Of a DNA stretch of 64,000 nt, positions 1,936 through 52,722 are shown piece by piece. The position numbers and the translations under genes are program-made. The stretch is taken from NCBI GenBank assembly GCA_964551595.1, contig CAZKCU010000001.1:197321-261320 (forward strand), given 5' to 3'. Source of the DNA: an uncultured Candidatus Saccharibacteria bacterium. Lineage in GTDB: Bacteria; Patescibacteriota; Minisyncoccia; Minisyncoccales; CAZKCU01. Position 1 is the stretch's first letter; every line of letters starts with the position of its first letter. The notes below the pieces were generated by a model, which was not told the DNA's origin, made no database searches, and worked only from the letters and a program-made list of their open reading frames with translations.

Positions 1936-1937
1936 GA

Positions 1938-1960
1938 ACCTCGCCTTCGGCGAGAACCTT
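1938..1960 (+). terminator. short hairpin after pilB stop (cctcgcc-ttcg-ggcgagg)
   Basis: inverted repeat with tetraloop immediately after the TAA stop; weak T tract. Confidence 0.35.
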
Positions 1961-2152
1961 GACTCGCTAATGTATAAACACTTAGTCTTGAATTAAATTA
2001 ACCCCGAAGATGGGGGCCAATCTTGAGTTTTAGGAACACGAAGTTAGAATTTTTCCGAGGGGTAATTTCGCCGTAGCCAAATTATCCATCTCTGAAAAAT
2101 TCCAGGGGCCCCCATCTTCGGGGTTAATTATAATACTAATTATAAGCGAAGC

Positions 2153-4559: not shown

Positions 4560-4736
4560 ATGATTTACAAAGAAAAAATTTTAACTCCGGTTGTTAGCCA
4601 AGAACCAGGAACAGTTCCTGAAGGAACTCCTGCAGAAGGAACTCCTGCAGAGGAAACTCCTGCAGAGGAAACTCCTGCTGAAGAAACTCCTGCTGAAGAA
4701 ACTCCTGCAGAAGAAGAAAAGAAAGAGGAAGTTTAG
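4560..4736 (+). CDS. small acidic repeat protein (59 aa) containing six 15-nt tandem repeats encoding (E/G)(G/E)TPA
   Basis: ATG at 4560, TAG at 4734; peptide MIYKEKILTPVVSQEPGTVPEGTPAEGTPAEETPAEETPAEETPAEETPAEEEKKEEV. The track ORF 4591..4791 is the wrong frame of the same repeat. Confidence 0.4.
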   Translation: MIYKEKILTPVVSQEPGTVPEGTPAEGTPAEETPAEETPAEETPAEETPAEEEKKEEV

Positions 4737-4745
4737 GAGTTTTTT

Positions 4746-6053: not shown

Positions 6054-7979
6054 ATGCCCCGTAGAAAATTTTATCGAAAAATTTATCAGAAGGCCAAAAA
6101 AGGAAAAAGAAGAAGCAGATTTCTTCTAATTTTAAAATTCTTTGGATATTTTCTTTTATTTTTTGTTTTTATTTCTTTGTTTTTATTTATTTACTATGCT
6201 AAGGACCTTCCCCGCCCGGAAAGATTTACCGAAAAGCCATTTATCCAATCAACTAAAGTTTACGACAAGACAGGGGAAATTCTTCTCTATGACGTTTATG
6301 GCGAAGAAAAAAGAGATGTTGTTTCTTTGGACCAAGTTCCAGAATATTTAAAGGAAGCTGTGATTGTAACTGAAGACGTCAATTTTTATCACCATTTTGG
6401 ATTAGATATTAAGGGAATAATTCGAGCCGTTTTAGCTAATTTGAGAGTGGGTAAAGCAATTTATGGAGGCTCAACTATCAGCCAACAACTTATCCGTTCT
6501 TCTTTCTTAACCAGAGAAAAAACTTTAAAAAGAAAAGTAAGAGAGATTATTTTAACTCTTGAATTAGAAAGAAGATATTCTAAAGATGAAATTTTAGAAT
6601 TTTATTTAAACCAGGTCCCCTTTGGCTCTAACACCTATGGAGTAGAAGCTGCTTGCCAGACTTATTTTAACAAGCCTATCTCTGAAATTTCTTTGTCAGA
6701 AGCTACTATTTTAGTTTCTTTAATCAGGTCCCCGAGTTATCTTTCTCCTTACGGAGAACACAAAGATGAGCTCCTATCTAGAAAAGATTATATCTTAAAC
6801 AAAATGTTAAAAGAAGGATACTTAACTCAAGAAGAGAGAGATAAAGCCAAAGAATCTGAAATAACCTTCGCCAAAATTTTACAGCCAATCCAAGCTCCTC
6901 ATTTTGTAATGTATGTTATGGAATACCTTAAACAAAGATATGGAGAAGATTTTTTAAAAGAAAAAGGGCTTAGGGTTTATACTTCTTTAGATTGGGAACT
7001 CCAGGAATGGGCTGAAAAAGTAATTAAAGAAGGAGGAGAGATTAATAAAAATTACCGAGCTCATAACGCCAGCTTAGTGGTTATTGATCCAAAAACCGGT
7101 CAAATTTTAGCTATGGTGGGATCAATAGATTATTTCGGAGACCCCTTTCCTAAAGATTGCCTGTCAGGAGAAAATTGTTTGTTTGATCCTTATCCTAATG
7201 TTACAATTCGAGGACGCCAGCCAGGCTCTGCTTTTAAACCTTTTGTCTATGCTACCGCTTTTAAAAAGGGTTATGATGATAAAACTGTCGTCATTGACGA
7301 AGAAACTAATTTCGGCACCCCGGCCTACCCTTATATCCCCAGAAATTATGATGGGCTTTTCCGGGGGCAGGTCTCTTTGAGACAGGCTTTGGCTCAATCT
7401 TTGAATGTCCCGTCAATAAAAGTCCTGGCCAATTTTGCCGGTTTACAAGATAGCCTTCAGACTGCTAAGGATTTGGGTATTACTACCTTAACTAAGCCTC
7501 CTTCTTTTTACGGTCTTCCTTTGGTTTTGGGCGGCGGAGAGGTGACTTTATTGGAAATGGTTTCAGCTTATGGAACTTTTGCTACCAAAGGATGGCACGT
7601 TCCCCCGGTCTCTATTTTAAAAATCGAGGATTCTGCTGGAAATATTATTGAGGAGAATAAAAAAACTCCAAAAATGGTCTTGGAGCCGGAAGTTGCTTCC
7701 CTTATTAATGACATTTTATCAGACAATGAAGCCAGAGCTCCTATGTTTGGAAGCAGGTCTTTACTTTATTTTGAAAACTACCAGGTAGCGGCAAAAACTG
7801 GAACGACCCAAAGCTATAAAGACGGTTGGGTAATTGGTTATACTCCTTCAATAGTAGCTGGGGTTTGGGTTGGGAATAACAATAACTCTCCGATGTCAAA
7901 ACAACCAGGGATAGTTTTAGCTGGTCCTATCTGGAGAAGATTTATGGAGAAAGTTCTTTTAAGAGGAACTGAGAACTAA
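6054..7979 (+). CDS. penicillin-binding protein 1A family (bifunctional glycosyltransferase/transpeptidase)
   Basis: N-terminal TM; GT51 motifs EDVNFYHHFGLDIKGI...GGSTISQQL; transpeptidase SxxK-like region; 641 aa. Confidence 0.8.
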   Translation: MPRRKFYRKIYQKAKKGKRRSRFLLILKFFGYFLLFFVFISLFLFIYYAKDLPRPERFTEKPFIQSTKVYDKTGEILLYDVYGEEKRDVVSLDQVPEYLKEAVIVTEDVNFYHHFGLDIKGIIRAVLANLRVGKAIYGGSTISQQLIRSSFLTREKTLKRKVREIILTLELERRYSKDEILEFYLNQVPFGSNTYGVEAACQTYFNKPISEISLSEATILVSLIRSPSYLSPYGEHKDELLSRKDYILNKMLKEGYLTQEERDKAKESEITFAKILQPIQAPHFVMYVMEYLKQRYGEDFLKEKGLRVYTSLDWELQEWAEKVIKEGGEINKNYRAHNASLVVIDPKTGQILAMVGSIDYFGDPFPKDCLSGENCLFDPYPNVTIRGRQPGSAFKPFVYATAFKKGYDDKTVVIDEETNFGTPAYPYIPRNYDGLFRGQVSLRQALAQSLNVPSIKVLANFAGLQDSLQTAKDLGITTLTKPPSFYGLPLVLGGGEVTLLEMVSAYGTFATKGWHVPPVSILKIEDSAGNIIEENKKTPKMVLEPEVASLINDILSDNEARAPMFGSRSLLYFENYQVAAKTGTTQSYKDGWVIGYTPSIVAGVWVGNNNNSPMSKQPGIVLAGPIWRRFMEKVLLRGTEN

Positions 7980-7980
7980 A

Positions 7981-8023
7981 GAACCGTTCGCTTCGCTCGC
8001 TGTAATTTGCTTCGCAAATTATC
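7981..8023 (+). repeat. copy A of ~40-bp intergenic repeat family (gaaccgttcgcttcgctcRctgtaatttgcttcgcaaatt)
   Basis: near-identical copies at 11185-11224, 35506-35545; extended variant 12622-12686; reverse-complement diverged copy 17259-17299. Confidence 0.8.
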
Positions 8024-9381: not shown

Positions 9382-10842
9382 TCAGATGCTGAAAACAAGC
9401 TGTCTAATTAACTCAATTTCTTCCTTTAAATTTTCGTTTGTTTCAAGTTCTTTGAAAATTTTCTCGTAGGAATGAATAGCCGTGGTGTGGTCTTTTCCTC
9501 CCATTTTCCTTCCTATAAAAGGGTAGGAACTTTTTAAGTCTTCTCTTAATAAATACATCGCAATTTGGCGAGGCCTGACAATCTCTCTTTTACGTGAGGA
9601 ATCTAAAAGGTTATTTTCTTTAAGGTCGTAAAATTTAGCTACAGCCCTGATTATTTTTTTCGGCGTGGCTGTTCTAGTTGAGGAAAAGAGTAATTTTTTA
9701 AGCAAAGATTTAGCTTCTTCGGGCTCTAAGGGGCGGTTATTTAACTTTTGGTGAGCGACTAATCTGTTCAAAGCTCCTTCAAGTTCCCTAATATTTCTTT
9801 GGATGTTTGATGCGATATAGGTAAGGGTTTCTTCGGGAAGGCTAATTTTTTTTTCTTGGGCCTTTGTTTTAAGAATAGCCATTCTTGTTTCGAAATCAGG
9901 ATAACCGATGTCAGCTATCATTCCTCCTTCAAATCTGGACCTTAATCTTTCGGTAAGTGCCGGGATAGCCTTTGGGGGCCGGTCAGAGGAAAGAATTATT
10001 TGTTTATTTCTTTCGTAAAGAGTATTAAAAGTATGGAAAAACTCTTCTTGAGTTTTTTCTTTCCCAGCCAGAAATTGAACATCATCAATAATAAGGACAT
10101 CTATCTGTCGGTATTTCGTTTTAAAATTTTCCATCGTATGATTTTTAATTGCCGTTACTACTCCAGAAGTAAATTTTTCAGAAGGAATATATTTTAATTT
10201 TTTTTCTGGAAAATTTTTAATCACCTCATTACCGACTGCCTGTAATAAATGGGTTTTACCGAGACCTACCCCTCCATAAATAAATAAAGGATTGTAGACA
10301 AGGCCAGGATTTTTTGAGGATGCCCAGGCAGCGGCCTGCGGTAGTTCATTAAAAGGACCAACCACAAAATTTTCAAAAGTATAGCGGGGGTTAAGATTAG
10401 TGTCTTTGTCTATTCTTAATTCTTGGAACTCAAGCTGGTCCGATTCTGGATAAGAGAAAGAGGGTTTTTTCAAAACTTTTAATCCTTGTCGGGCGACAGC
10501 ATATTTAATCTCTTTGATTTCTCCGTCCAAGCTGTGCAAGAGTTTAAAAATAATTTTGTTGTATTTATTTTCAAGCCACTCTTTGGCAAAAGAATTAGGA
10601 ACAGAGACTATAACTTTGCCTTCTTTCTGGGAAAGAATCCCGGTATTCCTAAACCAAGTGCTAAAATTAGCCTGAGAAATATTTAATTGGATTTGGGCCA
10701 AAACTGCCTGCCAGAGTTCTTCCTTAGTCACGATTTTATTTTTTAAATTACTTCTCATATTTATGTAGTTGCAATCAACTTTTTCCTTTTCTGGAATTGC
10801 GACTGCTTTCTCTCGAGTTTTAATTATTATATCACATGTCAA
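9382..10842 (-). CDS. dnaA: chromosomal replication initiator protein DnaA
   Basis: AAA+ Walker A GGVGLGKTHLLQAVGNE, sensor motifs, C-terminal DNA-binding domain; 486 aa. Confidence 0.9.
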   Translation of the reverse strand: MTCDIIIKTREKAVAIPEKEKVDCNYINMRSNLKNKIVTKEELWQAVLAQIQLNISQANFSTWFRNTGILSQKEGKVIVSVPNSFAKEWLENKYNKIIFKLLHSLDGEIKEIKYAVARQGLKVLKKPSFSYPESDQLEFQELRIDKDTNLNPRYTFENFVVGPFNELPQAAAWASSKNPGLVYNPLFIYGGVGLGKTHLLQAVGNEVIKNFPEKKLKYIPSEKFTSGVVTAIKNHTMENFKTKYRQIDVLIIDDVQFLAGKEKTQEEFFHTFNTLYERNKQIILSSDRPPKAIPALTERLRSRFEGGMIADIGYPDFETRMAILKTKAQEKKISLPEETLTYIASNIQRNIRELEGALNRLVAHQKLNNRPLEPEEAKSLLKKLLFSSTRTATPKKIIRAVAKFYDLKENNLLDSSRKREIVRPRQIAMYLLREDLKSSYPFIGRKMGGKDHTTAIHSYEKIFKELETNENLKEEIELIRQLVFSI

Positions 10843-11184
10843 AATAAAAATAAAACAAAGGAAAAACTAATTTCTGTTAATAAACTGGGGAGAACTTGTG
10901 GGTTATTAACAGCTTAATAATTCGCCAATATATTATTAATACCCTCCCTAATTTCAAGAAGAGTTGACAGATATTTTTAAGGAATTAATATATAAAGTGA
11001 GGGGGTGCGAGGGATTCTCCTCTAAGGACACGGTTTTAATAAAGGAGGTTAAAAAGCAATTGCCTGGTTATGTCCGACCCAGCGGCTCCAAATGACTTAA
11101 TTTGTTAAGACCATTCCCCCCTCACTAAAGAAGAGGTACTTTACCTCTTCTTTAGTTTTTAAAAATGTGTTAAACTAAAAAAAG
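10843..11184. promoter_or_regulatory. dnaA upstream region; candidate oriC neighbourhood by synteny only
   Basis: dnaA-dnaN order; AT-rich stretch 10900-10990; no canonical TTATCCACA DnaA boxes found by eye. Confidence 0.25.
10964..11160 (+). ncRNA. candidate small RNA transcription unit (promoter, ~160-nt structured body, intrinsic terminator)
   Basis: TTGACA at 10964 with -10-like tatata about 19 nt downstream; 5' gugaggggg pairs with 3' ccccccucac (10997/11115); hairpin aaagaagaggta-ctt-tacctcttcttt plus T run at 11127-11160; no ORF. Confidence 0.35.
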
Positions 11185-11224
11185 GAACCGTTCGCTTCGC
11201 TCACTGTAATTTGCTTCGCAAATT
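11185..11224 (+). repeat. copy B of ~40-bp intergenic repeat family
   Basis: ggaaccgttcgcttcgctcactgtaatttgcttcgcaaatt, ends 4 nt before the ATG of the next gene. Confidence 0.8.
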
Positions 11225-12585: not shown

Positions 12586-12621
12586 CCGTTAAAGGTAAGA
12601 TGATAAAAGAACTAAAGAAAG

Positions 12622-12686
12622 GAACCGTTCGCTTCTCTCACCGTAATACAAACCAGTCGCTTCGCTCCTTGTAATTGCTTCGCAAT
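12622..12686 (+). repeat. copy C (extended/duplicated variant) of the ~40-bp repeat family
   Basis: gaaccgttcgcttctctcaccgtaata...cgcttcgctccttgtaattgcttcgcaattaat, upstream of ORF 12706. Confidence 0.7.
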
Positions 12687-12705
12687 TAATAATTCGTAAA
12701 TTAAA

Positions 12706-13123: not shown

Positions 13124-14371
13124 ATGCAATTCTTCGCTGATTTTCATCTACATTCAAAATATTCAAGAGCAACTTCTCCTCAGATGGATTTGGAAAATCT
13201 TGATAAGTGGGCAAAAATTAAAGGAATAAAAGTTGTTGGGAGTGGAGATTTCACTCACCCAGAGTGGTTTAATAACCTGAAAGAAAAACTTGAGCCCGCA
13301 GAACAGGAACTTTTTAAATTGAAAAATAATGATTCTGAGACCCGTTTCATTTTGACTTCGGAGATTAGTTGTATTTATTCAAAAGGAGGAAGGGTGAGAA
13401 AAATCCATATTTTAATCTTTGCTCCTGATTTCCAAACAGTTGAGAAAATTAATACCCAGCTTGGCTGGATTGGAAATTTAAAATCCGACGGTCGCCCCAT
13501 TTTAGGCCTGGATGCCAAAGAATTAGTAAAAATTGTTTTAAATATTAATTCTAAATGCTTGATTGTCGGCGCTCATTTAATGACCCCATGGTTTTCTTTA
13601 TTTGGTTCAAAATCTGGATTTGATTCAGTTGAAGAATGTTTTGAAGAATATTCAAAATATATCTATGCGGGGGAAACTGGGCTTTCAGCTTCTCCAGAAA
13701 TGCTTTGGCGAATGCCTGATGGCCAAAAGCTTAGTTTAATCTCAAACAGTGATTCACACAGTCCGGCCAAACTGGGCAGAGAGGCAAATGTTTTTGACAC
13801 GGAATTGAGTTATCCGGCAATTGTTGCGGCAATAAAAAGCAAAGACCCTCAAAAATTTTTATACACCATTGAATTTTTTCCCGAAGAGGGCAAATATCAT
13901 TTTGACGGCCACAGGAATTGCAATATAAGTTTAAGTCCGGCTGAAACCAAAAAATACAACGGAATTTGTCCCCGCTGCGGCCGGCCCTTGACCGTTGGAG
14001 TTCTAAACCGAGTTGAACAATTAGCCGACCGGCCCGAGGGATTTAAGCCTCAAGGTGCCATTCCCTACAAAAGTTTGATTCCTTTGGCAGAAATAATTGC
14101 TGAAGTTTTAGGTGTTGGGGTTGGAACAAAAGAAGTAGAAAAACAATACAGGGACCTGATTGAAAAATTCGGTTCAGAATTTAATGTTTTGCTTAACGTT
14201 TCTGTTTCTGATTTGAGGGCAGCAACTTTACCCGAAATTGCAGAAGCCATTTCAAGAGTCCGCGAGGGAAAAGTTAGTGTTGAGCCAGGCTACGATGGAG
14301 TTTATGGGAAAATCAGGATTTTTTCGAAAGGTGAGAAAAAAGACTTATCTCGCCAAGGAACCTTGTTTTAA
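13124..14371 (+). CDS. PHP-domain metallophosphoesterase with C-terminal zinc finger, endonuclease Q-like (TIGR00375-type)
   Basis: FADFHLHSKYSRA PHP motif at N-terminus, GSGDFTHPEW, CPRCGRP zinc-ribbon; 415 aa. Confidence 0.45.
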   Translation: MQFFADFHLHSKYSRATSPQMDLENLDKWAKIKGIKVVGSGDFTHPEWFNNLKEKLEPAEQELFKLKNNDSETRFILTSEISCIYSKGGRVRKIHILIFAPDFQTVEKINTQLGWIGNLKSDGRPILGLDAKELVKIVLNINSKCLIVGAHLMTPWFSLFGSKSGFDSVEECFEEYSKYIYAGETGLSASPEMLWRMPDGQKLSLISNSDSHSPAKLGREANVFDTELSYPAIVAAIKSKDPQKFLYTIEFFPEEGKYHFDGHRNCNISLSPAETKKYNGICPRCGRPLTVGVLNRVEQLADRPEGFKPQGAIPYKSLIPLAEIIAEVLGVGVGTKEVEKQYRDLIEKFGSEFNVLLNVSVSDLRAATLPEIAEAISRVREGKVSVEPGYDGVYGKIRIFSKGEKKDLSRQGTLF

Positions 14372-14918: not shown

Positions 14919-15125
14919 ATGGCCTTCAAAAAATTCGATGAAAAACCTTCTGAAGGAGGTTTCCAGCGTCAGATGTTCGATGTTTCCAAAATGAATATTA
15001 AATGCCGTGATTGTGGAACACCAATAACTCAGCTACCCTTTAACCCAGACCCTGCAAGATTAGATTCTATTCGTTGCCAAGATTGTATGCGTAAATTTCG
15101 AGAGCAGAGACCAAGGAGATTTTAG
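14919..15125 (+). CDS. small zinc-ribbon protein (hypothetical)
   Basis: 68 aa; CRDCG...CQDC two CxxC pairs. Confidence 0.4.
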   Translation: MAFKKFDEKPSEGGFQRQMFDVSKMNIKCRDCGTPITQLPFNPDPARLDSIRCQDCMRKFREQRPRRF

Positions 15126-15208: not shown

Positions 15209-16309
15209 TTAAAAATTTTTGCCTAAAAAGGAAATTGAACTTCCTTTAATTTCAAATTTTCCTTCAATGAATTTTTCAATTACCCAGATGTTAGTTTTAC
15301 AATGGTTGGTAATTTCGGAAACTGTTACTCGGGATTTACCTTGGGCTAAGGCCAAATAAGGAAGAACTTGGTCAGCTAAATGTTTATCTAAACAAGCCTG
15401 GGATTTTTGTTCTTTTAATAATTCCAAAGCTGCTTCTTTGCCTACATCTTCTGCCCTTTTTGATAATTTCCCCAAATTATCAGTTCCAATTATTGTATTT
15501 TCAAATAAGGCTGCTAAGCAAATTTGACTGCCCGGGCATTGAGTATCGTAATATTCAATTTTTTCTTCAGTTGGTAATTTCAATTTTCCTAAAACTTCTC
15601 TTACCCCGGCAACTTGACGTTCCGCCACTTTTTTATTTTTTAAAGCATTTGAAGCTCCAGAAATTACTAAAATCTTTTTTAATTCTCCTCTTTCAGTTAA
15701 ATTAATTGGTTTCAATTTTGATGGGAAAACTTTTACCTCCACTCTTGCTCCACCTTCCGGATAATAACCTCGTTTTAAAACACTGATTTCGACTAACAGA
15801 GAACGGTTCTCTGTTAAATTCATTTTTTCTAAGGTTGGTAAAAAGACATAATGAAAATAATCAATAGTAGGCGAGAAAAAAGTATCAGTTGCTCCGCCAG
15901 TAAAAATAATTTTTATAGGTTGGGAAGCAAATAAAGCAGGCAGAATCAAAGTTTGTAAAACTAAGGTTATGCTTCCAGCAGTAGGAATATTTACAGAAAC
16001 CCGGTCGAGGTTCCTTCTAGGAGGGTGGAGGGGGGGTTGTAGTCTGTAAATTTGGCCTGGATAAAATTTAATTTCTTCACTTCCTAACCTATCACCTTCT
16101 AACCGTCCATTGCAGAGTTGTGCCAAAGCTTGAATGCCTAAAAGATGTTGAATGGACAGGCCTGGTTTCGGCCTCGACTTGCGAATATTAAAAATTCGGC
16201 AGGGTTTTTGAGTTACTGCCGAAAGAGCACCGGCAACTCTAAGTATAGCCCCTGCCCCAGAGCCGTAGGAACCGTCAATTTCAATAAAATTTTGATTTAG
16301 CATAATCAA
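15209..16309 (-). CDS. rtcA: RNA 3'-terminal phosphate cyclase
   Basis: 366 aa; IDGSYGSGAGAILRVAGALS N-terminal motif of RtcA. Confidence 0.8.
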   Translation of the reverse strand: MIMLNQNFIEIDGSYGSGAGAILRVAGALSAVTQKPCRIFNIRKSRPKPGLSIQHLLGIQALAQLCNGRLEGDRLGSEEIKFYPGQIYRLQPPLHPPRRNLDRVSVNIPTAGSITLVLQTLILPALFASQPIKIIFTGGATDTFFSPTIDYFHYVFLPTLEKMNLTENRSLLVEISVLKRGYYPEGGARVEVKVFPSKLKPINLTERGELKKILVISGASNALKNKKVAERQVAGVREVLGKLKLPTEEKIEYYDTQCPGSQICLAALFENTIIGTDNLGKLSKRAEDVGKEAALELLKEQKSQACLDKHLADQVLPYLALAQGKSRVTVSEITNHCKTNIWVIEKFIEGKFEIKGSSISFLGKNF

Positions 16310-17232: not shown

Positions 17233-17258
17233 AATAATTTTAATTATCTCACATTTTT

Positions 17259-17299
17259 AATTTGCGGAACAAATTGCAGTAAGCGAAGTGAGCGGTTTC
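17259..17299 (-). repeat. copy E (reverse orientation, diverged) of the ~40-bp repeat family
   Basis: reverse complement gaaaccgctcacttcgcttactgcaatttgttccgcaaatt, ~80% identical to canonical unit. Confidence 0.6.
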
Positions 17300-18250: not shown

Positions 18251-19270
18251 ATGAGAGAAACAATTTTAAATTTTCCAAAACAATTTAAAGAAGGCATAGA
18301 AAGAGCAAAAGATATTAGGGTTGAGGGAAGGTTTGAAAATATTATAATTTGCGGAATGGGCGGTTCAGCTTTACCTGCCGACCTTTTAGTTATTTTTTTT
18401 AATGATTTGAGATTACCCCTCTATATTCATCGCAGCTACAATCTTCCTCCTCAAGCAACTAAAGAAAGTTTAATAGTTTGTATTTCCTTTTCCGGGAATA
18501 CCAAAGAGCCAATTTCAGCTTTAAAAGAAGCTCAAGAAAGAAAACTTAAAGTGATAGCCATTACTACTGGAGGAGAGCTTGCAAAATTGGCCCAAAAATA
18601 TAATACGCCCCTTGTCTCTCTGCCTCCTGTTAAAATTCAGCCCCGCTGGGCCATTGGCTATCTTTTTGGAGCTTTGGTAAAGGTTTTGTCTAATTCCGGA
18701 ATAATTGAGGATAGTTCTGGAGAGATCTTTAAAATAGCTGAAAATTTGAGACCCCTTGAATTAGAAGACCGGGGCAAAATTTTAGCTAAAAAATTAGCGG
18801 GCAAAATCCCTATTATTTATGCTTCAAACAAATTTAAGTCCTTAGCCCGGATTTGGAAAATAAAATTAAATGAAAATTCAAAAACAATGGCTTTTTGGAA
18901 CTATTTTCCTGAACTTATTCATAACGAGATTGTAGGATATAACTTAATCGCGGAGCGATTGCCCACTGTTCACACACAGCAGGGAGCGAAGCGACCGGTT
19001 TGCTGTCTCAAAAATTTTCAGGTGATTATGCTTCGAGATTCAGATGACCATCCAAAGGTTTTAAAAGCAATGGATTTAACGGATGTTTTGTTAAGGAAAA
19101 AAGGCGCTGGAGTTGATTTCGTTGAGATTAAGGGGAAAAGTATTTTAGAGAAAGTATTCAATAATTTAATTCTTGCTGATTGGGTAAGCTATTATTTGGC
19201 TGAAGAATATAAAATTGACCCGGCTCCGGTAGAAATTGTGGAAGAATTCAAGAAAAAATTAAAAGAGTAA
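18251..19270 (+). CDS. bifunctional phosphoglucose/phosphomannose isomerase (SIS domain, archaeal type)
   Basis: GMGGSALPADLL SIS motif; 339 aa. Confidence 0.7.
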   Translation: MRETILNFPKQFKEGIERAKDIRVEGRFENIIICGMGGSALPADLLVIFFNDLRLPLYIHRSYNLPPQATKESLIVCISFSGNTKEPISALKEAQERKLKVIAITTGGELAKLAQKYNTPLVSLPPVKIQPRWAIGYLFGALVKVLSNSGIIEDSSGEIFKIAENLRPLELEDRGKILAKKLAGKIPIIYASNKFKSLARIWKIKLNENSKTMAFWNYFPELIHNEIVGYNLIAERLPTVHTQQGAKRPVCCLKNFQVIMLRDSDDHPKVLKAMDLTDVLLRKKGAGVDFVEIKGKSILEKVFNNLILADWVSYYLAEEYKIDPAPVEIVEEFKKKLKE

Positions 19271-19506: not shown

Positions 19507-19535
19507 TTTGTCAAAAAACCAAGGCTTTTTAAGAT
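19498..19535. terminator. bidirectional terminator hairpin (aagccttg-atttgtcaaaaaac-caaggctt + T run)
   Basis: 8-bp stem between convergent DUF1858 gene and RT gene. Confidence 0.55.
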
Positions 19536-20662
19536 ATTCTTTTTTCCAATTTCAGATAATCATCCAGAAGACCTCGCGGCAAGGTATCAATTCTGGCAAA
19601 CCCCATTTGTCCGCGAACCTTCTGCCAGGTTTTTTCATAATCCAGGCCATGGTCTAAAAGCCAGCCAAGATGATGAAGAGAAAGACGCAGTCGCCTTTTA
19701 AAGGTGCGCGTATTGTGAGCTTTTCCTTCAATTACATTCAATCCGAGCATTCTTAAACTGCTTCCCCTTATCATCCTTCTCTCTTTAATCTTGTGAGGCT
19801 CAAATCCATATTTCCTAATTGCTCTTAAAAGGGCAATTTTTACTTTTTGAGGAAATTTTTCTTTTTCTATTGAAAAGAAAAGATTGTCAGCATAACGGGT
19901 ATATTTCCCTTCGGAGTTCTCTACCAGAGATAAAAGCTTCTCATCCAATTTCTTACATATTAAATCAAAAAGTTTTGGGCTGGGCGGTGCTCCTTGAGGA
20001 AGATTTCCCTTAAAGGTGGTGAGTTCAGCTACAATTCTCGCTCCATACCAGGAGAAATAACCATACTCATAGCGGTACTTTTTCTTTTGCTCTGCGGTTT
20101 CATCAGGGCCATAAAGGGCAGGATTCATTTCTGCTTTAAACCGTACCCTTCTTCCTTCAATTAGATATTGAAAGACATCATCAAAATTTACGCTTGGAAA
20201 AGCATCTTCAAAATCAACGCAAAGAATGCTTTTTGCTCCCAAATGAGGATTTATCGCTTCATTAATGCTTCCGCCGGAAAAACCAAATACATTTTTAGCC
20301 GGATTTAAGAAGCTGAGAACATATTTATTAATTTTCCTCTGAATTTTCTTTAAGCGTTCATCGGGAACGCAAACTTTTCTTTTGCCGCCACTTTCTTTTG
20401 GCAGGTATACTACTTTATAAAGGCAATTGCGGTTGCTTCTTATCAATCTTAGAATCTGGATTAAATCATCAGGATGGATTTTTATCTCTTTTGCCAGCCA
20501 AAAGCAGGTAGGTATCTCTCTGGGATTTATCAAGCTTGTTTTTTTAGGCAAAATAGCGTTAAATCTCGCTGTTTCTTCTTCCATTATTGCCCTTTCTATT
20601 AATTCTTCTTTCGCCAATTCCTCCGGAGACTTTTCCGGGAGTATTTCTTCATAGTTTCTCAT
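19529..20662 (-). CDS. reverse transcriptase, retron/Abi/DRT-like (RT domains 1-7, QGxxxSP type; motif C is YADN)
   Basis: RT1 YLPKESGGKRKVCVP; RT2a FGFSGGSINEAINPH; motif A CVDFEDAFPSV; motif B' LPQGAPPSPKLF; motif C RYADNLFFS; RT6 KYGFEPHKIK; RT7 LRMLGLNV; AGGAG RBS 6 nt before ATG. Confidence 0.8.
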   Translation of the reverse strand: MRNYEEILPEKSPEELAKEELIERAIMEEETARFNAILPKKTSLINPREIPTCFWLAKEIKIHPDDLIQILRLIRSNRNCLYKVVYLPKESGGKRKVCVPDERLKKIQRKINKYVLSFLNPAKNVFGFSGGSINEAINPHLGAKSILCVDFEDAFPSVNFDDVFQYLIEGRRVRFKAEMNPALYGPDETAEQKKKYRYEYGYFSWYGARIVAELTTFKGNLPQGAPPSPKLFDLICKKLDEKLLSLVENSEGKYTRYADNLFFSIEKEKFPQKVKIALLRAIRKYGFEPHKIKERRMIRGSSLRMLGLNVIEGKAHNTRTFKRRLRLSLHHLGWLLDHGLDYEKTWQKVRGQMGFARIDTLPRGLLDDYLKLEKRIS

Positions 20663-20960
20663 TAACTGCTCCTTTCATTATTATTTTTAAAAAGAACTGG
20701 GGTTGCCTCTAACTTTAAAAGATATATCTTAAAAGACAACCCCTTGATATTATGGTGGTGTTCCCTCCCTCGCCTTTTGCTGTGAAAAAAGATGCGAAGC
20801 GATACAAAGCTAGTATTCAGAGCTGTCAGATTTCTGACGGCCTGTCTTTTTGAAAAATTTTCAAAGACACTGACGAACCCCACCTTTATTTTAAAATAAC
20901 AAAATAAATCGTTAGTGTCAAAAATGAATAACCTCGGTCCTTAATTGAACCGAGGTTCTT
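20663..20960 (-). ncRNA. structured non-coding leader/ncRNA candidate upstream of RT (retron msr-msd-like or DRT ncRNA-like)
   Basis: ~300 nt without ORF support; TTGACA-like -35 (fwd 20916-20921); several hairpins (ggggttg...caacccc; gtcag-attt-ctgac; gtctttttgaaaa/ttttcaaagac). Confidence 0.35.
20927..20957 (-). terminator. hairpin immediately after stop of ORF 20962..21303 (aacctcggt-N10-accgaggtt)
   Basis: perfect 9-bp stem 4 nt downstream of TAG; followed on the minus strand by attcattttt. Confidence 0.45.
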
Positions 20961-20961
20961 A

Positions 20962-22552: not shown

Positions 22553-24265
22553 ATGAAAAATCAGGAAATAGCTAAAATATTATATGAGATAGCTCAATAT
22601 CTTGAGATGGAAGGAGTGTCTTTCAAACCCTATGCCTATGAGAAGGCGGCGCTGACTTTGGAAACCCTGGAGGAAGATATTGAAGAAATTTATAAAAAAG
22701 GGAGAATTAAAGTTCTAAAAGATATTCCTGGAATAGGGAAAAGCATTGCTGAGAAAATTGAAGAATATTTAAAAACCGGAAAGATAAAGTATTACCAAGA
22801 ACTTAAGAGAAAAACTCCCTTGAATATCGGAGAATTAGCAGCTGTGGAGGGAATGGGTCCAAAAAAGGCAAAGGTATTATACCAAAAATTAGGGATTAGA
22901 AATTTAAAAGATTTAGAGAAAGCAGCCAGAGCTCACAAAATTGCTCCTCTCTTCGGTTTTGGGGAAAAAACTGAAAAAAATATCTTGGAGGGGATAGCTT
23001 TTTTAAAGAGAAGCAAAGGAAGGTTTCTTTTAGGAGATATTCTCTCGGTCGTTATGGAAGTTCAGGAAAAATTAAAAAGCCTAAAAGAGGTTGAGGAAAT
23101 AAGTCCGGCAGGTTCAGTTAGAAGAATGAAAGAAACTATTGGCGATGTCGATTTTTTGGTAATTTCCAAAAATCCAGAGAAAGTTATGGATTTTTTTGTT
23201 TCTTTACCCGGAGTGATTAAAATTTGGGGCAAGGGCAAAACTAAATCATCGGTTAAAATGAGAGAAGGTTTCGATATGGATATAAGAGTTGTTCCAAGAA
23301 AAAGTTATGGTTCAGCTCTCCAATACTTTACTGGTTCAAAAGAGCATAATATCGTCACCAGAAAAATTGCCATAGCTAAAGGATTAAAACTGAATGAATA
23401 TGGAGTTTTTCGGGGGAAGAAACAGATTGCTGGGAAAAATGAAGAAGAAGTTTATAAAATCTTAGGGATGGCTTGGATACCTCCTGAATTGAGAGAAAAC
23501 CAGGGCGAAATTGAAGCTGCCCTTGAATGGAAATTACCGAAGTTAATTGATTTTAAAGATATTAAAGGGGATTTACATACTCACTCTAAATGGAATGGAG
23601 GTCATAATTCGATTTTGGAAATGGCCGAAACTGCGATGAGAAGAGGATATAGATATTTGGGAATTACTGACCATACTAAATTTCTAAGAATTGAGCACGG
23701 ATTAGACGAGAAAAAGCTGGCCTTACAAAGAAAAGAAATTGACAAATTAAATCAAAAATTCAAAAATTTCAAAATTCTTCAGGGAGCAGAAACAAACATT
23801 TTGAATGATGGCTTAGTAGATATTAGAGATGAATCCCTAAAAAAGTTAGACTATGCTATTGCTGGAATTCACTCAAATATGAAAATGCCAAAAGAGAAAA
23901 TGACAGAAAGAATTATTCAGGCAATGAAAAATCCCTATATTAAAATAATCTCCCATCCAACCGGCAGAATCTTAAAAAGAAGAAATGAATACCAAATTGA
24001 TTTTGATAAAATTTTGAGAGCGGCTAAAGAAACAGGAACAATTTTAGAAATCAATTCTTTTCCTGAAAGATTAGATTTAAACGACCAGAATATTCGTCGG
24101 GCAAAAGAGGCTGAAGTAAAAATGGTAATCAATACTGACGCCCACCACCTGGACCAAATGAGATTTATTGAATTTGGAATTGCCCAAGCCCGCCGCGGCT
24201 GGGCCGAAAAAAAAGATATAATTAATGTCCAACCATTAGAAAAATTATTAAGGTATTTCAAATAA
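22553..24265 (+). CDS. DNA polymerase X family protein with C-terminal PHP domain (PolX)
   Basis: N-terminal Pol beta-like HhH region; GDVDFLV nucleotidyltransferase motif; C-terminal GDLHTHS...HT PHP motifs; 570 aa. Confidence 0.8.
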   Translation: MKNQEIAKILYEIAQYLEMEGVSFKPYAYEKAALTLETLEEDIEEIYKKGRIKVLKDIPGIGKSIAEKIEEYLKTGKIKYYQELKRKTPLNIGELAAVEGMGPKKAKVLYQKLGIRNLKDLEKAARAHKIAPLFGFGEKTEKNILEGIAFLKRSKGRFLLGDILSVVMEVQEKLKSLKEVEEISPAGSVRRMKETIGDVDFLVISKNPEKVMDFFVSLPGVIKIWGKGKTKSSVKMREGFDMDIRVVPRKSYGSALQYFTGSKEHNIVTRKIAIAKGLKLNEYGVFRGKKQIAGKNEEEVYKILGMAWIPPELRENQGEIEAALEWKLPKLIDFKDIKGDLHTHSKWNGGHNSILEMAETAMRRGYRYLGITDHTKFLRIEHGLDEKKLALQRKEIDKLNQKFKNFKILQGAETNILNDGLVDIRDESLKKLDYAIAGIHSNMKMPKEKMTERIIQAMKNPYIKIISHPTGRILKRRNEYQIDFDKILRAAKETGTILEINSFPERLDLNDQNIRRAKEAEVKMVINTDAHHLDQMRFIEFGIAQARRGWAEKKDIINVQPLEKLLRYFK

Positions 24266-24511
24266 AACATCCCACATCGGAGATGGGTCGGGTCAGGTCG
24301 CGAGAGTTCTCCGCGAAGCGGAAACTCCCGACCGAGAACCTTTCGGTTCTCCCGTGTAGGAAAAGATTAAAAACAGAGGGTGGTCAAAGAGATAAATCTC
24401 TTTTTCACCTCGCTGCGGTTCGGTTTTTAAGGAGCGAGCCCTAAGCGAGGCGAAGCCGAGCGCTAGCACTTTGTGCCAGAGAGGGCGAGCGACTAACTTG
24501 GTATTACCACT

Positions 24512-29253: not shown

Positions 29254-30897
29254 ATGATTCGTCAAGAAATAGCTAAATTGATAGAGAAGTCAATAAAAAA
29301 ACTCCAAAAAGAGAAGGCTTTGCCTCAATTTGAAATTCCCGAGATTAAGATTGAACATCCGGAGGAGAAAATTCACGGTGATTATGCTACAAACATTGCG
29401 ATGGTAATTGCGAAAATTGTAGAAAAAAATCCCTTAGAGATTGCCAATATTTTAGGTTCTAGTTTAAAGGTTTTAGGTTCTAGTTTATTTGAAAAAGTCA
29501 AAATAGCAAAGCCAGGGTTTATTAATTTTTTTCTTTCAAAAGAATATTTACAACAAAGAATTGGAGAAATTTTAAAGAAGGGAGAGAAATTTGGTGAACT
29601 AAATATTGGTAAAGGAAAGAAGGTTCAGGTAGAATTTATTTCGGCAAATCCAACAGGTCCTTTAACTGTCGGCAATGCTCGGGGTGGTCCTTTTGGTGAT
29701 GTTTTGGGAAATGTTCTGAAAAAAGCGGGATTTAAAGTAGAGAAAGCTTATTATATCAACGATTACGGGATGCAAATTTTGGCTCTCGGACATTCGATTT
29801 TGAAAGATAGCGAAGCGAAATACAAGGGTAAATATATTGATGAACTTGCCAAAAGAATCAAAGAAAAAGAGGCCTATAAGGCAGGTAAGCTCGCAGCCAA
29901 AATTGTTATTGATGAGATGATTAAGAAAACAACCGACAGAATGGGAATTAACTATGACGAGTGGTTTCCAGAAAACACTCTTCACGAGAGTGGCCAAGTT
30001 AATAAAGTTTTGAAGATTTTGGAGCAGACTACAACCCTCCCATCACATCCTCCCGCCAAAGGCGGGCTCCTAAATTTAATTTATCAAAAAGAAGGAGCTC
30101 TGTGGTTTAAATCATCAAGATATGGCGATGAGAGGGATAGAGTCGTAGTCAAAGCGGATGGAGATAAGACTTATTTGGCAGGTGACGTCGCCTATCACCA
30201 CTATAAATTTGAGAAGAAGAAATTTGACAAGGTAATAGACGTTTGGGGAGCTGACCATGCTGGTGATGTAGTAGGTCTTCAGGCAGGAGTGGAAGCCTTA
30301 GGTCACAAAGGAAAACTTGATATTTTATTGCTTCAGTTTGTAACTATACTTGAAAAAGGGGAAAAGCTGAAAATTTCAAAAAGGAGAGGAACTTTTGTTA
30401 CTATGGATGAATTACTTGATGAGGTAGGAGTTGATATTGCTAGATTCTTTTTTCTTCAAAAATCAGCCAATACCCATTTAAATTTCGACCTCGCCCTGGC
30501 TAAAAAGCAGTCAGAGAAAAACCCGGTTTACTACGTACAATATGCTCATGCCAGAATATGTAGTATTTTGCGTAAAGCTGTTGATGTTAAACATCAACAA
30601 GGTTCTTCTCGGCAGGCCTTTAAACTATTAAATCATCCAAATGAACTAGAGCTTATTAAACAGCTGGTTAGGTTTCCAGAAATTATTGAAGATATAGTTA
30701 AAGATTATCAAGTCCAGAGAATTCCCCAATATGCTATGGATTTAGCTACAGTTTTCCACCAGTTTTATCGAGACTGCCACGTGATTACCGAAGATAAAGA
30801 ATTAGCCGGAGCAAGACTATCTTTGGTCTTAGCCACTAAAACCGTATTGAAAAACACTTTAGATTTAATGGGAATTTCTGCCCCTGAAAAAATGTAA
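29254..30897 (+). CDS. argS: arginyl-tRNA synthetase
   Basis: 547 aa; class I catalytic core, DALR anticodon-binding domain at C-terminus. Confidence 0.85.
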   Translation: MIRQEIAKLIEKSIKKLQKEKALPQFEIPEIKIEHPEEKIHGDYATNIAMVIAKIVEKNPLEIANILGSSLKVLGSSLFEKVKIAKPGFINFFLSKEYLQQRIGEILKKGEKFGELNIGKGKKVQVEFISANPTGPLTVGNARGGPFGDVLGNVLKKAGFKVEKAYYINDYGMQILALGHSILKDSEAKYKGKYIDELAKRIKEKEAYKAGKLAAKIVIDEMIKKTTDRMGINYDEWFPENTLHESGQVNKVLKILEQTTTLPSHPPAKGGLLNLIYQKEGALWFKSSRYGDERDRVVVKADGDKTYLAGDVAYHHYKFEKKKFDKVIDVWGADHAGDVVGLQAGVEALGHKGKLDILLLQFVTILEKGEKLKISKRRGTFVTMDELLDEVGVDIARFFFLQKSANTHLNFDLALAKKQSEKNPVYYVQYAHARICSILRKAVDVKHQQGSSRQAFKLLNHPNELELIKQLVRFPEIIEDIVKDYQVQRIPQYAMDLATVFHQFYRDCHVITEDKELAGARLSLVLATKTVLKNTLDLMGISAPEKM

Positions 30898-35482: not shown

Positions 35483-35505
35483 AGTATGTTAAAATAAATT
35501 AAAAG

Positions 35506-35545
35506 TAACCGTTCGCTTCGCTCACTGTAATTTGCTTCGCAAATT
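35506..35545 (+). repeat. copy D of ~40-bp intergenic repeat family
   Basis: aaccgttcgcttcgctcactgtaatttgcttcgcaaatt ending 1 nt before ATG 35547. Confidence 0.8.
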
Positions 35546-37235: not shown

Positions 37236-37272
37236 ATTAAAAATTCATTTCACCTTTTATCGTCTGTCGGTA

Positions 37273-37299
37273 TTTGATACCGACAGACAGATACGACAG
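37273..37299. repeat. palindromic element copy P1 (gtctgtcggtatttgataccgacagac), intergenic
   Basis: perfect 12-bp arms; two further copies at 48781-48807 and 60767-60791 inside CDSs. Confidence 0.8.
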
Positions 37300-48060: not shown

Positions 48061-49700
48061 TGGAGGAGATTTTATTACAAAAAGCTGGCAAAAAAATGAT
48101 ACTTTTGGGTAACGAAGCCATTTGTCGGGGTGCTTTGGAAGCAGGAGTTCAATTTGTTTCTACTTATCCTGGAACCCCGGCTTCAGAAATTGGAAATACC
48201 TTTTTTAAACTTTCTCAATCAGGAAAATATAAAGGTTATTTTGAGTTTTCTACCAATGAAAAAGTAGCTTTGGAAGCAGGAATTGGAGCTTCTTTTTCTG
48301 GTTTGAAAACTTTGGTGGCAATGAAAAACTTTGGCTTAAATGTCTGTTCAGATTCTTTACTTCCATTTTTATATACTGGTGCAAAAGGTCCGACTGTAAT
48401 TGTTGCTGCCGATGACCCTTCCTGCCACAGTTCAGCTCAATCTGAAGAAAATAGCCGAGCTTTTGCTTTTTTAGCCCATATCCCCGTTTTAGAACCTTCA
48501 GATCCTCAGGAATGCAAAGATTTTGTTAAGTTAGGTTTCAAAATTTCAGAAAAATTTCAAATTCCAGTAATGATAAGAACTACAACAAGAGTTGCTCACC
48601 AGCGAGCAATAGTAAAATTGGGAAAGATTACGAAACCCGGCAACGTAGTGGGAAAGTTTATTAAAGAGCCAAAGAGATTTGTTACCATGCCCCCGAGAGT
48701 ATTGGAGATGAAAAAAGAGCTGCTTAAAAAAATCAAACAAATCAGAAAATTTTCCGAAAAAACCCAAATAAATAAGATAAGTCTGTCAGTATCAGATACC
48801 GACAGACAGAAAATAGGAATAATTAGTTCAGGGGTTACCCATTTATATGTAATGGAGGCAGTAAAGGAACTAAAATTAAATTTGCCAGTTTTGAAGCTGG
48901 GATTTTTTTATCCTTTGCCAAAAGAGAAAATAAAGAATTTTATTAAAAATTTTAAAAAAGTTCTGATTGTTGAAGAATTAGAGCCGTATTTAGAAAGAGA
49001 AATAGAAAGATTAGCAAAAGATGTCAATCCGAAACTTCAAATTTTCGGCAAAGGTCTGGTTCCCGAAGTTGGCGAACTAAAACCCGAAATCGTTACCTTG
49101 GCCATCGTCAAGTTTGCTAATTGTAAATTGAAAATTGAAAATTGGAAATTCCAAATTCCAAAACGTTCTCCTCAGCTTTGTCCAGGTTGTCCTTATTGGT
49201 TAGTTTTTGGGGCAGTTAAAAAAGCAGTAGATCCCAAAAAGGTAATTTTTGGGGGAGACATTGGTTGTTATATGTTAGCAGGTCTCCCTCCTCACTTTAT
49301 CCAAGATTATCTCTCTTGTATGGGGTCATCTATAGGAATTGCCCACGGGATTAAAAAAGCGACTGGCCAAAAATTAATTACTTTTATTGGTGACTCAACT
49401 TTTTTTCATGCTGGTATCCCAGCTTTGATTAATACGGTTTTTAATAAATCCAATCCTTTAATTATCGTAATGAACAACCAAACCACTGCTATGACCGGAC
49501 ATCAGCCTCATCCCGGGGCGCCAGCCAAACCAGATGGAATAAAGATTGAAAATATTGTCAAAGCTTGCGGTGTAAAGAATTTAAAAGTAATTGACCCTAT
49601 CAAACAAAAAGAGTTTATTAATACAGTTAAAAAATTTTTAAATAAAAAAGAGGTTTCAGTAATTATAGCTCGTCGTCCATGCATCCAGATAAAAAAATGA
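48061..49700 (+). CDS. iorA: indolepyruvate/2-oxoacid:ferredoxin oxidoreductase alpha subunit (TPP-binding)
   Basis: GNEAICRGALEAG N-terminus, TPP motif GGDIGCYMLAG; start set to ATG 48061 rather than 47982, which overlaps leuS; carries palindromic element P2 in frame. Confidence 0.7.
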
Positions 49701-52134: not shown

Positions 52135-52722
52135 ATGAAACAAGCTTTAATCAGTGTTTATAATAAAACCGGCATAGCTGATTTTGCTAAAAAATTGATT
52201 AAATTGGACTGGAAAATAATTTCCACTGGCGGAACGGCCAAAGTTTTAAGAAAAGCAGGAATTAAAGTTATTCCAATTGAAAAAATCACCCAGAATCCCG
52301 AAACTTTTGATGGAAGAATGAAAACAATCTCTTTTCAGATTGGCGGAGCCATTCTTTATGACCGAAAAAATAAAAAACATTTAAAGGAAGCTAAAAAATT
52401 AGGAATTTTTCCAATTGATATGGTAGTTTGTAATCTTTATCCCTTTGAGAAGGTTATTATAAAGAAAAATTGCACCTTAAAAGAGGCGATAGAAAATATT
52501 GATATTGGAGGCCCTATGATGGTTCGAGCTGCAGCCAAAAATTACAAATACGTTACCGTAATAATCGACCCAAAAGATTATAAAAGAATTATTAAGATTC
52601 TGAGAATTAAAGGAAAAATTCCAGAAAAAACTCGATTGAAACTAGCCCAAAGAGTTTTTCAGAGAACAACTGAATATGATAAAAGCATAAATAAGTTTCT
52701 TAAAAATGTCTTTCAAAAATAA
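52135..52722 (+). CDS. purH: IMP cyclohydrolase domain protein (PurH N-terminal MGS-like domain, separate ORF)
   Basis: ALISVYNKTGIADFAKKL...STGGTAKVLRKAGIKV...FDGRMKTISFQIGGAILYDR. Confidence 0.7.
   Translation: MKQALISVYNKTGIADFAKKLIKLDWKIISTGGTAKVLRKAGIKVIPIEKITQNPETFDGRMKTISFQIGGAILYDRKNKKHLKEAKKLGIFPIDMVVCNLYPFEKVIIKKNCTLKEAIENIDIGGPMMVRAAAKNYKYVTVIIDPKDYKRIIKILRIKGKIPEKTRLKLAQRVFQRTTEYDKSINKFLKNVFQK

Follow-up and report, generated by a model that had tools for sequence, protein, structure and literature searches.

In a 64,000-nt stretch of contig CAZKCU010000001.1 (hereafter the window), from a Nealsonbacteria-like bacterium of the candidate phyla radiation (CPR, Patescibacteria) placed via its PGI and RecO homologs, we found that a non-coding repeat unit has inserted at six loci. 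The standard unit is 43-46 bp long, with variants of 60 and 77 bp, and in the aligned copies it consists of two adjacent hairpins of 20 nt (the 5' box) and 17 nt (the 3' hairpin). We propose, with a probability of about 80%, that it is a miniature, non-coding, non-autonomous mobile element of the class that includes repetitive extragenic palindromes (REPs), Rickettsia palindromic elements (RPEs) and MITEs (miniature inverted-repeat transposable elements), and that it spreads by copy-and-paste. This mode of spread is proposed because all six loci are lineage-specific insertions with empty sites in relatives, and because near-identical copies occur within and between genomes. The family is recently active in this CPR genome.

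The 40-mer GAACCGTTCGCTTCGCTCACTGTAATTTGCTTCGCAAATT matches the window at 7981-8020, 11185-11224 and 35506-35545, each time with 0-1 mismatch, while 100 dinucleotide shuffles gave an expectation of 0 against these 3 observed. With the 5' half alone as the query, 6 sites were obtained against 0.01 expected. A profile made from the copies recovered 7 units at 6 loci, and beyond those 7 units nothing in the whole window rose above noise. Copy counts hold for the part of the genome examined, that is, the window and about 10 kb beside it, and the copies are as follows.

Copy A, 7978-8021, plus strand: 44-nt insertion between the convergent PBP1A gene and dnaN, with 1 mismatch to the 40-mer.
Copy B, 11179-11224, plus strand: 46-nt insertion with an exact match to the 40-mer.
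Copy C, 12618-12690, plus strand: 5' box doubled (C1, 12621-12647; C2, 12648-12671), then the 3' hairpin AATTGC-TTC-GCAATT (12673-12687); in the alignment, a 77-nt insertion at 12625-12701.
Copy D, 35503-35545, plus strand: 43-nt insertion downstream of recO.
Copy E, 17254-17299, minus strand: diverged 46-nt insertion between greA and an HD hydrolase gene.
Copy F, 18942-19001, minus strand: 60-nt variant with an additional middle hairpin, in a PGI/PMI gene; box match at 18982-18999, minus strand.
Copy G, 14490-14526 of contig L148, just outside the window: an extra diverged copy.

Both orientations occur among the copies, and the genes downstream of them are functionally unrelated. Copy A starts two codons ahead of the ancestral PBP1A stop, so that a new TAA stop comes from the insert, and it faces the end of dnaN. 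Copy B ends 4 nt before the ATG (11229) of a SLOG/LOG-like gene, whose product belongs to Pfam LDcluster4; copy C ends 17-20 nt before the ATG (12706) of a gene for a 112-aa membrane protein, and copy D abuts the ATG (35547) of a DUF11 surface-protein gene. Copy E has the greA stop on one side and a pre-existing terminator hairpin on the other, and is antisense to both neighbours. Copy F lies in frame and antisense in the PGI/PMI gene, where it leaves the open reading frame (ORF) intact and adds 20 aa (NLIAERLPTVHTQQGAKRPV); Pfam bact-PGI_C extends across the insertion. The repeat family described in the initial annotation is therefore real, as are its internally duplicated copy (about 12618-12690) and its reverse-complement copy (17254-17299), both recovered by the box search and the profile. 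The gene positions it gave for copies A to E also hold: B, C and D precede start codons, A lies between convergent genes and E between greA and the HD hydrolase gene. Its five copies stand, though the count was too low, as the sixth locus, F, had been overlooked.

For comparison we used the syntenic locus in a complete 639,534-bp genome (L123), loci from three other lineages (L124-L126; L136/L137 with L146/L147; L144/L145), and independent assemblies of the window's own species (L140-L143, L148 and L149). A pairwise alignment over 34 kb with the contig of the nearest relative, at 85% nucleotide identity, contained 21 window-specific insertions of at least 15 nt, and 6 of these are exactly the element loci. 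For A, B, D, E and F, site-by-site alignment located the empty site to the base, in as many as four relatives. With a slash at the insertion point, L136 reads gagaact/tctgaagtaat at site A and tgtgttaaactaa/aaatATG at site B; L146 and L147 read tgctaaaatagacta/acATG at site D (also written TGCTAAAATagactaacATG); and L123 and L124 read attatctcaca/ttatttagagagg at site E and ggatata/gcgagctc at site F. Copy B is missing from L123, L124 and L136, in which the ATG follows 6 nt past TAAACT, and copy C is a 77-nt insertion relative to L136. The 20 aa of copy F, which come from an insertion of exactly 20 codons in a variable loop, are missing from PGI homologs at 78-81% identity. L124 and L136 are empty at every shared site. 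L123 is empty at all except C, where it has a diverged single copy, making C the only copy shared with a relative.

No target-site duplication was found, as no flank is doubled in filled versus empty sites A, B, D, E and F. A CTAAAG repeat around copy A was considered as a target duplication and rejected, since the empty site in L136 shows it to be native sequence. Single units in the aligned copies have no terminal inverted repeats. The left flanks vary (AACT, CTAA, ACTA, ATAA, CAGC), and the sole regularity is a right flank that begins with T at 4-5 sites, in a small sample.

Copy D is identical in four independent assemblies from different samples (L140-L143), copy A is identical in L148 and L149, and records of the PGI protein with the F insert come from 4 contigs. 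Because these copies recur in independent assemblies and contigs, the assembly artefact that the initial annotation had allowed for does not account for the family. When metagenomes were scanned for the junction between the two hairpins, four more contigs (L119-L122) were found, which carry 43 nt that are 100% identical to copy B; their flanks resemble the window neither at the nucleotide level nor in translation. In L119, L121 and L122 the box, the hairpin and an inverted box form a composite that resembles a REPIN-like doublet. The relatives bear another two-hairpin family (GGCGAAGAGnnCTTCGnnCTCTTC...GCTTCCATAAATGGAAGC; also written aggcGAAGAGGGCTTCGCCCTCTTCttcacctttGCTTCCATAAATGGAAGCtcgg). 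L144 and L145 carry a member of it (57 nt, L144 10755-10811) at the exact position of copy D, and it is also found in L124 at about 9940-9990 and 14920-14990. The clade thus hosts several such mini-elements. The CPR-specific part of the unit had no match in viral contigs or a phage collection, and a phage origin was rejected on this basis.

The unit begins with AAGGAACCG... and ends with ...GCAAATTAA. Its 5' box reads (A)AACCG-N-TC-GC-TTC-GC-TC-N'-CTG, that is, AACCG-N-TCGCTTCGCTC-N'-CTG, and as a DNA strand it is d(CAGTGAGCGAAGCGAACGG). The 3' A+T-rich hairpin, AATTTGC-TTC-GCAAATT, has a 7-bp stem and is followed by TA(A)n. The heptamer GCTTCGC, which caps both hairpins, is found at 15 places in the window, where composition alone would predict 2.2. 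Its complement, GCGAAGC, is an extraordinarily stable DNA mini-hairpin (PMC13037366), and the complementary strand of the box can be read as a stem, tandem G-A/A-G pairs and a GC-GAA-GC tip.

Changes among the copies respect both hairpins. In the 3' stem, copy C has lost one pair from both arms (AATTGC/GCAATT), copy F has C-G in place of T-A (AATCGC/GCGATT), and copy E has one T-G wobble. Pairing in the box is backed by covariation at positions 2-20, 4-18, 5-17, 8-14 and 9-13. The N/N' pair is T-A, G-C or T-G among the copies, pair 4-18 changes from G-C to A-T in the C2 box, and in copy G the mismatched box positions 6-16 and 7-15 have turned into G-C and T-A. The initial annotation had seen no strong self-complementarity in the unit and had taken this to favour a protein- or RNA-recognised site. 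That premise was wrong: the 3' half is a 7-bp hairpin with compensatory changes, and covariation supports the box hairpin. A search of the element against Rfam 15 gave no match at the gathering score, and only noise at E≤10.

A 244-nt, G+C-rich, window-specific insertion at 24265-24508, in the PolX/NUDIX interval where relatives have a 2-3-nt gap, also contains several GCGAAGC-tipped hairpins. One of them is built like the complementary strand of the box, with a stem, tandem G-A pairs and GC-GAA-GC.

At two loci the insertion point lies between a host promoter element and the start codon.

11166-11176, plus strand: extended -10 element of the LOG-like gene, TGTGTTAAACT; host sequence outside the repeat, conserved in L123, L124 and L136.
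35487-35495, plus strand: extended -10 element of the surface-protein gene (TG 35487-35488, TAAAAT 35490-35495); host sequence outside the repeat.

According to a promoter scan and the alignment, the second of these (TGCTAAAAT) is kept in relatives without the element. In the relatives of B and D, the ATG follows 6-8 nt after the conserved extended -10, implying leaderless or near-leaderless mRNAs. In the window, the element separates the -10 from the ATG at both loci, and the gene would therefore gain a structured leader of about 45 nt. Of the 7 loci seen in this genome, 4 (B, C, D and G) are sense copies that end 0-20 nt before a start codon, and the same holds for copy 2 of L120 and the copy in L123. 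Two explanations can be given for this bias. Either a melted promoter is preferred as a single-stranded target, or selection is at work, through the tolerance of a compact genome for such sites or through a function that the leader has gained.

In a crude count, to be read as supportive only, a -10-like hexamer lies 5-8 nt before the start in 17 of 70 genes, and Shine-Dalgarno-like tetramers were found in 12 of 70. Many first genes of transcription units have such a hexamer at this distance, for example those at 5990 (minus), 6054 (plus), 21490 (plus), 26195 (plus), 29254 (plus) and 61445 (minus); several of the hexamers have a TG upstream, and few of the genes have Shine-Dalgarno-like motifs. 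These starts suggest that leaderless translation is widespread in this CPR genome.

The position of these copies raises the question of whether the unit is a cis-acting 5'-leader RNA module for translation or mRNA stability, selected or exapted after insertion, whose hairpins would shield the 5' end or place an upstream AAGGA near the AUG. Copies B, C, D and G, L120 copy 2 and the L123 copy are suitably placed, the conserved -10 elements upstream mean that the unit would be transcribed, AAAGGA begins the B, C and L123 copies, and leaderless-type starts seem common and Shine-Dalgarno-like ones rare. Yet the same genes in relatives lack the unit, the contexts of A, E and F allow no leader function, D and G have no GGA, the box in sense RNA has U-C/C-U mismatches and is not predicted to fold, and no Rfam family matches. 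We consider this explanation unlikely, and the module could at best have a secondary role, because the arrival of identical copies at new loci is left unexplained.

The initial annotation had offered three readings, a regulator binding site, a promoter module and a small mobile or REP-like element, and only the last fits; all six loci are insertions missing from syntenic relatives. As a portable promoter, the unit would bring its own -35/-10 pair, or a GGAAC...-10 pair of the extracytoplasmic function (ECF) type, to the downstream gene. Several copies do lie directly upstream of genes, B and C allow a reading of GGAAC-N16-TGTAAT, and copy C has one weak match (TTCGCA-17-TAAAAT). The host promoters, however, are older than the insertions and conserved upstream of them in relatives: with conserved extended -10 elements upstream of the B, C and D inserts, a promoter module is not needed, and the unit contains no well-placed -35/-10 pair. 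A -10 hexamer needs an A at position 2, which TGTAAT does not have, the match in C runs into the start codon, GGAAC is missing in D and E, and A, E and F face no gene. The same box also occurs in other phyla at hairpin apices, in attC sites and inside ORFs. The promoter explanation is thus not supported, and we hold it to be very unlikely.

Nor is the unit as an operator for a dedicated DNA-binding regulator of a small regulon supported, even though a conserved 40-mer with a tandem TTCGC motif stands near several gene starts. The orthologous promoters of four relatives have no unit, copies sit within a coding region and between convergent gene ends, both orientations are found, and the genes downstream have no common function. 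Further, the identical stretch occurs in contigs whose flanks cannot be aligned to the window. The empty sites contradict this reading, and we regard it as very improbable.

A transcription terminator or RNA 3'-end stabiliser, the usual role of REPs, might be suspected from copy A, which lies between convergent genes, and from the existence of stable hairpins. The hairpins are not followed by a T-run, a terminator scan makes no call on them, most copies adjoin start rather than stop codons, and copy E was inserted beside an existing terminator, and we regard such a role as very improbable. The ops sites of Bacteroides carry GCGAAGC on the non-template strand (PMC11213015). An ops-like site was rejected for the unit, since its 5'-leader copies read GCTTCGC on that strand.

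A mobile element is thus the explanation we prefer, and a mechanism can be sketched for it. The form that moves or is recognised would be the folded single strand, acted on in trans by an enzyme encoded elsewhere, for which our best guess is a hairpin-recognising HUH/Y1-type transposase like those that serve IS200/IS605 derivatives and REPs. Confidence in this last step is low because no such gene lies in the window or the fetched loci and no fixed target sequence was found, and single-strand mobilisation by an HUH/Y1-type enzyme is put forward here as a tentative proposal. Copies would last only where the compact genome tolerates them, at gene ends, in a variable protein loop when in frame and, above all, in the gap of a few bases that separates -10 element and start codon in leaderless-looking genes. 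There the element would become a structured 5' leader of about 45 nt, which may secondarily affect mRNA stability or translation.

Several results weigh against the mobile-element explanation. Nearest-neighbour folding gives no box hairpin and the z-scores are unremarkable; because they are not significant, the box hairpin is argued from covariation, as thermodynamics alone cannot support it. No constant target tetranucleotide, as IS200/IS605 would require, is seen 5' of the element, and there is no strand bias relative to the inferred replication direction (4/7 versus 3/7). No transposase, recombinase or HUH protein was found among the window ORFs or the fetched loci of relatives. The forward bias next to start codons could reflect a selected function, not mere tolerance, and the limited part of the genome to which the copy counts apply should be kept in mind.

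The window also contains a gene for a retron-type reverse transcriptase (19529-20662, minus strand, 377 aa; PADLOC RT_II-A, 4e-45). Upstream of it lie a non-coding region of about 300 nt (20663-20961) with GGGGTTG/CAACCCC inverted repeats and then a 113-aa ORF, so that the locus extends to 21303 on the minus strand; the 113-aa ORF has no Pfam, PADLOC or NCBIfam match. This retron locus in a CPR genome is found in L124 and L136 and not in L123. A retron link to the element was rejected, since the non-coding region shares with it only the heptamer GCTTCGC. Because this region is unlike the element, and because L124 and L136 bear the reverse transcriptase and no element, we regard the two as unconnected.

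The box itself is not confined to this clade. A scan for ACCGNTCGCTTCGCTCNCTG, with one genome per species, returned at least 118 loci (L001-L118), identical to one another by construction of the pattern; GC-rich genomes increase the chance expectation for such matches. Among the matches listed, about half are from Pseudomonas, Stutzerimonas or Azotobacter and have the form cTAACaa..ggttcaa-BOX-gggacgggctaaagcccgcccc..GTTAG, in which the core sites of integron attC sites (cTAACaa...GTTAG) are clear. A plasmid match (L127 3001-3021) lies between a cassette ORF and aacA4, beside intI1, and because of this cassette context we assign the Pseudomonas-type matches to attC sites. The remaining matches listed belong to lineage-specific repeat families. 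The box stands between GACGAG repeats in bacteria of the Planctomycetes-Verrucomicrobia-Chlamydiae (PVC) group, between TTCTAGA repeats in Kiritimatiellae, inside one arm of long repeat-based hairpins in Omnitrophota and Lentisphaerae, and in 55-nt tandem repeats in Actinomycetota; Kofleriaceae and Acidobacteriota have it in repeat families as well. In Bacteroidales it forms arrays with GACAGA spacers, some of them in frame in long ORFs and encoding ..VSERSERS.., and in phage contigs it is surrounded by GC-rich stems.

Among the matches listed, which fall into 66 flank families, 56 of 74 flank-family combinations have a Watson-Crick pair at N/N', where 27 would be expected if the two positions were independent. 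Viral contigs gave 8 matches to the box (L128-L135), and 0 each to the pattern when reversed and when shuffled with its composition kept. Rfam has no family for the box-bearing loci of other phyla, and a literature search for the box sequence returned only primers and short hairpin RNA (shRNA) backbones and no paper describing it. It is conceivable, albeit doubtful, that the 5' box is one case of a pan-prokaryotic 20-nt hairpin module, ACCG-N-TCGCTTCGCTC-N'-CTG. If so, small palindromic elements would include an undescribed superfamily, defined by this module, next to the REPs tagged with GTAG or CGTC; alternatively, the box would be a common single-strand recognition or priming hairpin of otherwise unrelated mobile DNA. 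The matches across phyla may reflect either homology or convergence on a hairpin of great stability. Homology would mean that a single-strand hairpin common to all of them connects integron attC sites with REP-like repeats and intragenic inserts, and would point to a widely distributed enzyme or host factor that recognises the box.

CPR genomes are regarded as streamlined and poor in mobile DNA. Here, an element below 50 bp accounts for 6 of the 21 insertions of at least 15 nt by which this genome differs from a relative with 85% identity. As a consequence, leaderless-looking genes gain structured leaders, the 3' end of one gene is rewritten and one enzyme is extended by 20 aa. Small hairpin elements may thus be a main source of structural change in these tiny genomes, and they would serve as markers for tracking populations at strain level in groundwater metagenomes.

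Two further repeat families were observed in the window. Members of a second family are short in-frame coding insertions that start with CTACAACCCnCCC...TCCTCCC and encode, for example, TTTLPSHPPAKGGL; the ArgRS and RtcA copies are missing from the nearest relative. Its sites are:

30029-30070: in the ArgRS gene.
16007-16042, minus strand: in the RtcA gene.
About 54961-55000: in the FolD gene.
L123, 9770: in the complete relative genome.

A third family is an intergenic perfect palindrome, GTCTGTCGGTAT(N3)ATACCGACAGAC, of which the copy at 37.2 kb is part of a 73-nt window-specific insertion:

37262-37288: first site.
48781-48807: second site.
60766-60792: third site.

Other features of the window are recorded here for completeness. 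The interval from dnaA to the LOG-like gene contains an RNA-like locus of about 130-160 nt (10964-11160, plus strand), which is also conserved in L123, L124 and L136. It has a promoter (TTGACA-16-TAATAT), a helix that closes it (GTGAGGGGG...CCCCCCTCAC) and a terminator, and no Rfam family matches it (best E = 0.2, noise). The intergenic region 1936-2152 (plus strand), in which a long inverted repeat (TTAACCCCGAAGATGGGGGCC ... GGCCCCCATCTTCGGGGTTAA) is accompanied by a hairpin flanked by GAACC, is possibly a structured RNA and has no Rfam match at E≤1. At 13997-14074 (minus strand), inside a 415-aa ORF (13124-14371), ARAGORN reports a 'tRNA-???' with a 4-base anticodon (taaa), on which Rfam makes no call; it is probably a false positive. 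In L123 (3700-6198) the ortholog of this 415-aa protein has 832 aa and contains an intein with a LAGLIDADG-type domain, another mobile insertion that is variable within the clade. A 15-nt tandem repeat of about 9 copies (GAAGGAACTCCTGCA and variants) at 4590-4739 possibly encodes an (E/G)ETPA-type repeat ending a small ORF. Finally, purH (MGS and AICARFT/IMPCHase) is seemingly split into overlapping ORFs, 52135-52722 and 52706-53674, which could reflect a frameshift, a programmed shift or a sequencing error.

Our literature search on REPs and MITEs in CPR bacteria found no description of elements such as this one. We compared the unit with the closest systems known. Like classical MITEs, it is small, non-coding and multi-copy, with insertion polymorphism between relatives; unlike them, its single units have neither terminal inverted repeats nor target-site duplications, and inverted boxes occur only in the composite of L119, L121 and L122. 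With IS200/IS605-derived elements it shares the absence of terminal inverted repeats and of duplication, and a similarly tipped hairpin near each end. It differs from these in having no fixed target tetranucleotide, strand bias or TnpA found, and it is far shorter than the known derivatives. The unit may also resemble the Rep-binding element of the adeno-associated virus (AAV) inverted terminal repeat (ITR), GCTCGCTCGCTCACTG.

Integron attC sites, which act as folded single strands, are close in another respect. In Pseudomonas and Stutzerimonas they carry the identical 21-mer AACCGTTCGCTTCGCTCACTG followed by a second hairpin, in the same order of box and hairpin. The flanks of all our copies, however, have no paired core sites R''(RYYYAAC)/L''...L'/R'(GTTRRRY), and there is neither an array nor an adjoining integrase; instead, the copies are scattered among dnaA, dnaN, greA and recO, which are syntenic in relatives, and they are flanked by fixed housekeeping genes that the relatives have too. 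With core sites and an array both missing, membership among integron attC sites was rejected. Copy F resembles an RPE in being an in-frame palindromic insert in a reduced genome that adds a peptide in a variable loop. RPE-1 is 100-150 bp long, compared with 60 bp for our coding copy and 43-46 bp for the standard unit, and a single coding copy was seen.

The unit is like REPs and REPINs in being a dispersed hairpin repeat in the 20-40 bp range that exists in singlet and, in the composite of L119, L121 and L122, REPIN-like inverted-doublet forms. It differs in several ways. REPs are tagged by an unpaired GTAG or CGTC at one end (PMC3733652), and neither GTAG/CTAC nor CGTC/GACG is present at either end of the aligned copies. 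The unit has two different hairpins, and 4 of its 7 loci are at start codons, whereas REPs lie mainly downstream of ORFs and only copy A is at convergent gene ends. No RAYT, the Y1 transposase by which REPs and REPINs are mobilised, was found among the window ORFs or the called genes of the fetched loci, which make the genome partly visible, and the host belongs to the CPR, with a genome of about 0.6 Mb, judged by the complete genome of a relative. REPs can nevertheless sit inside ORFs and supply stop codons (PMC3733652), as copy F and, for the PBP1A stop, copy A do. REPs inserted at the apex of other palindromes have also been described (PMC3733652), and they are the nearest precedent for the box inside the palindromes of other phyla.

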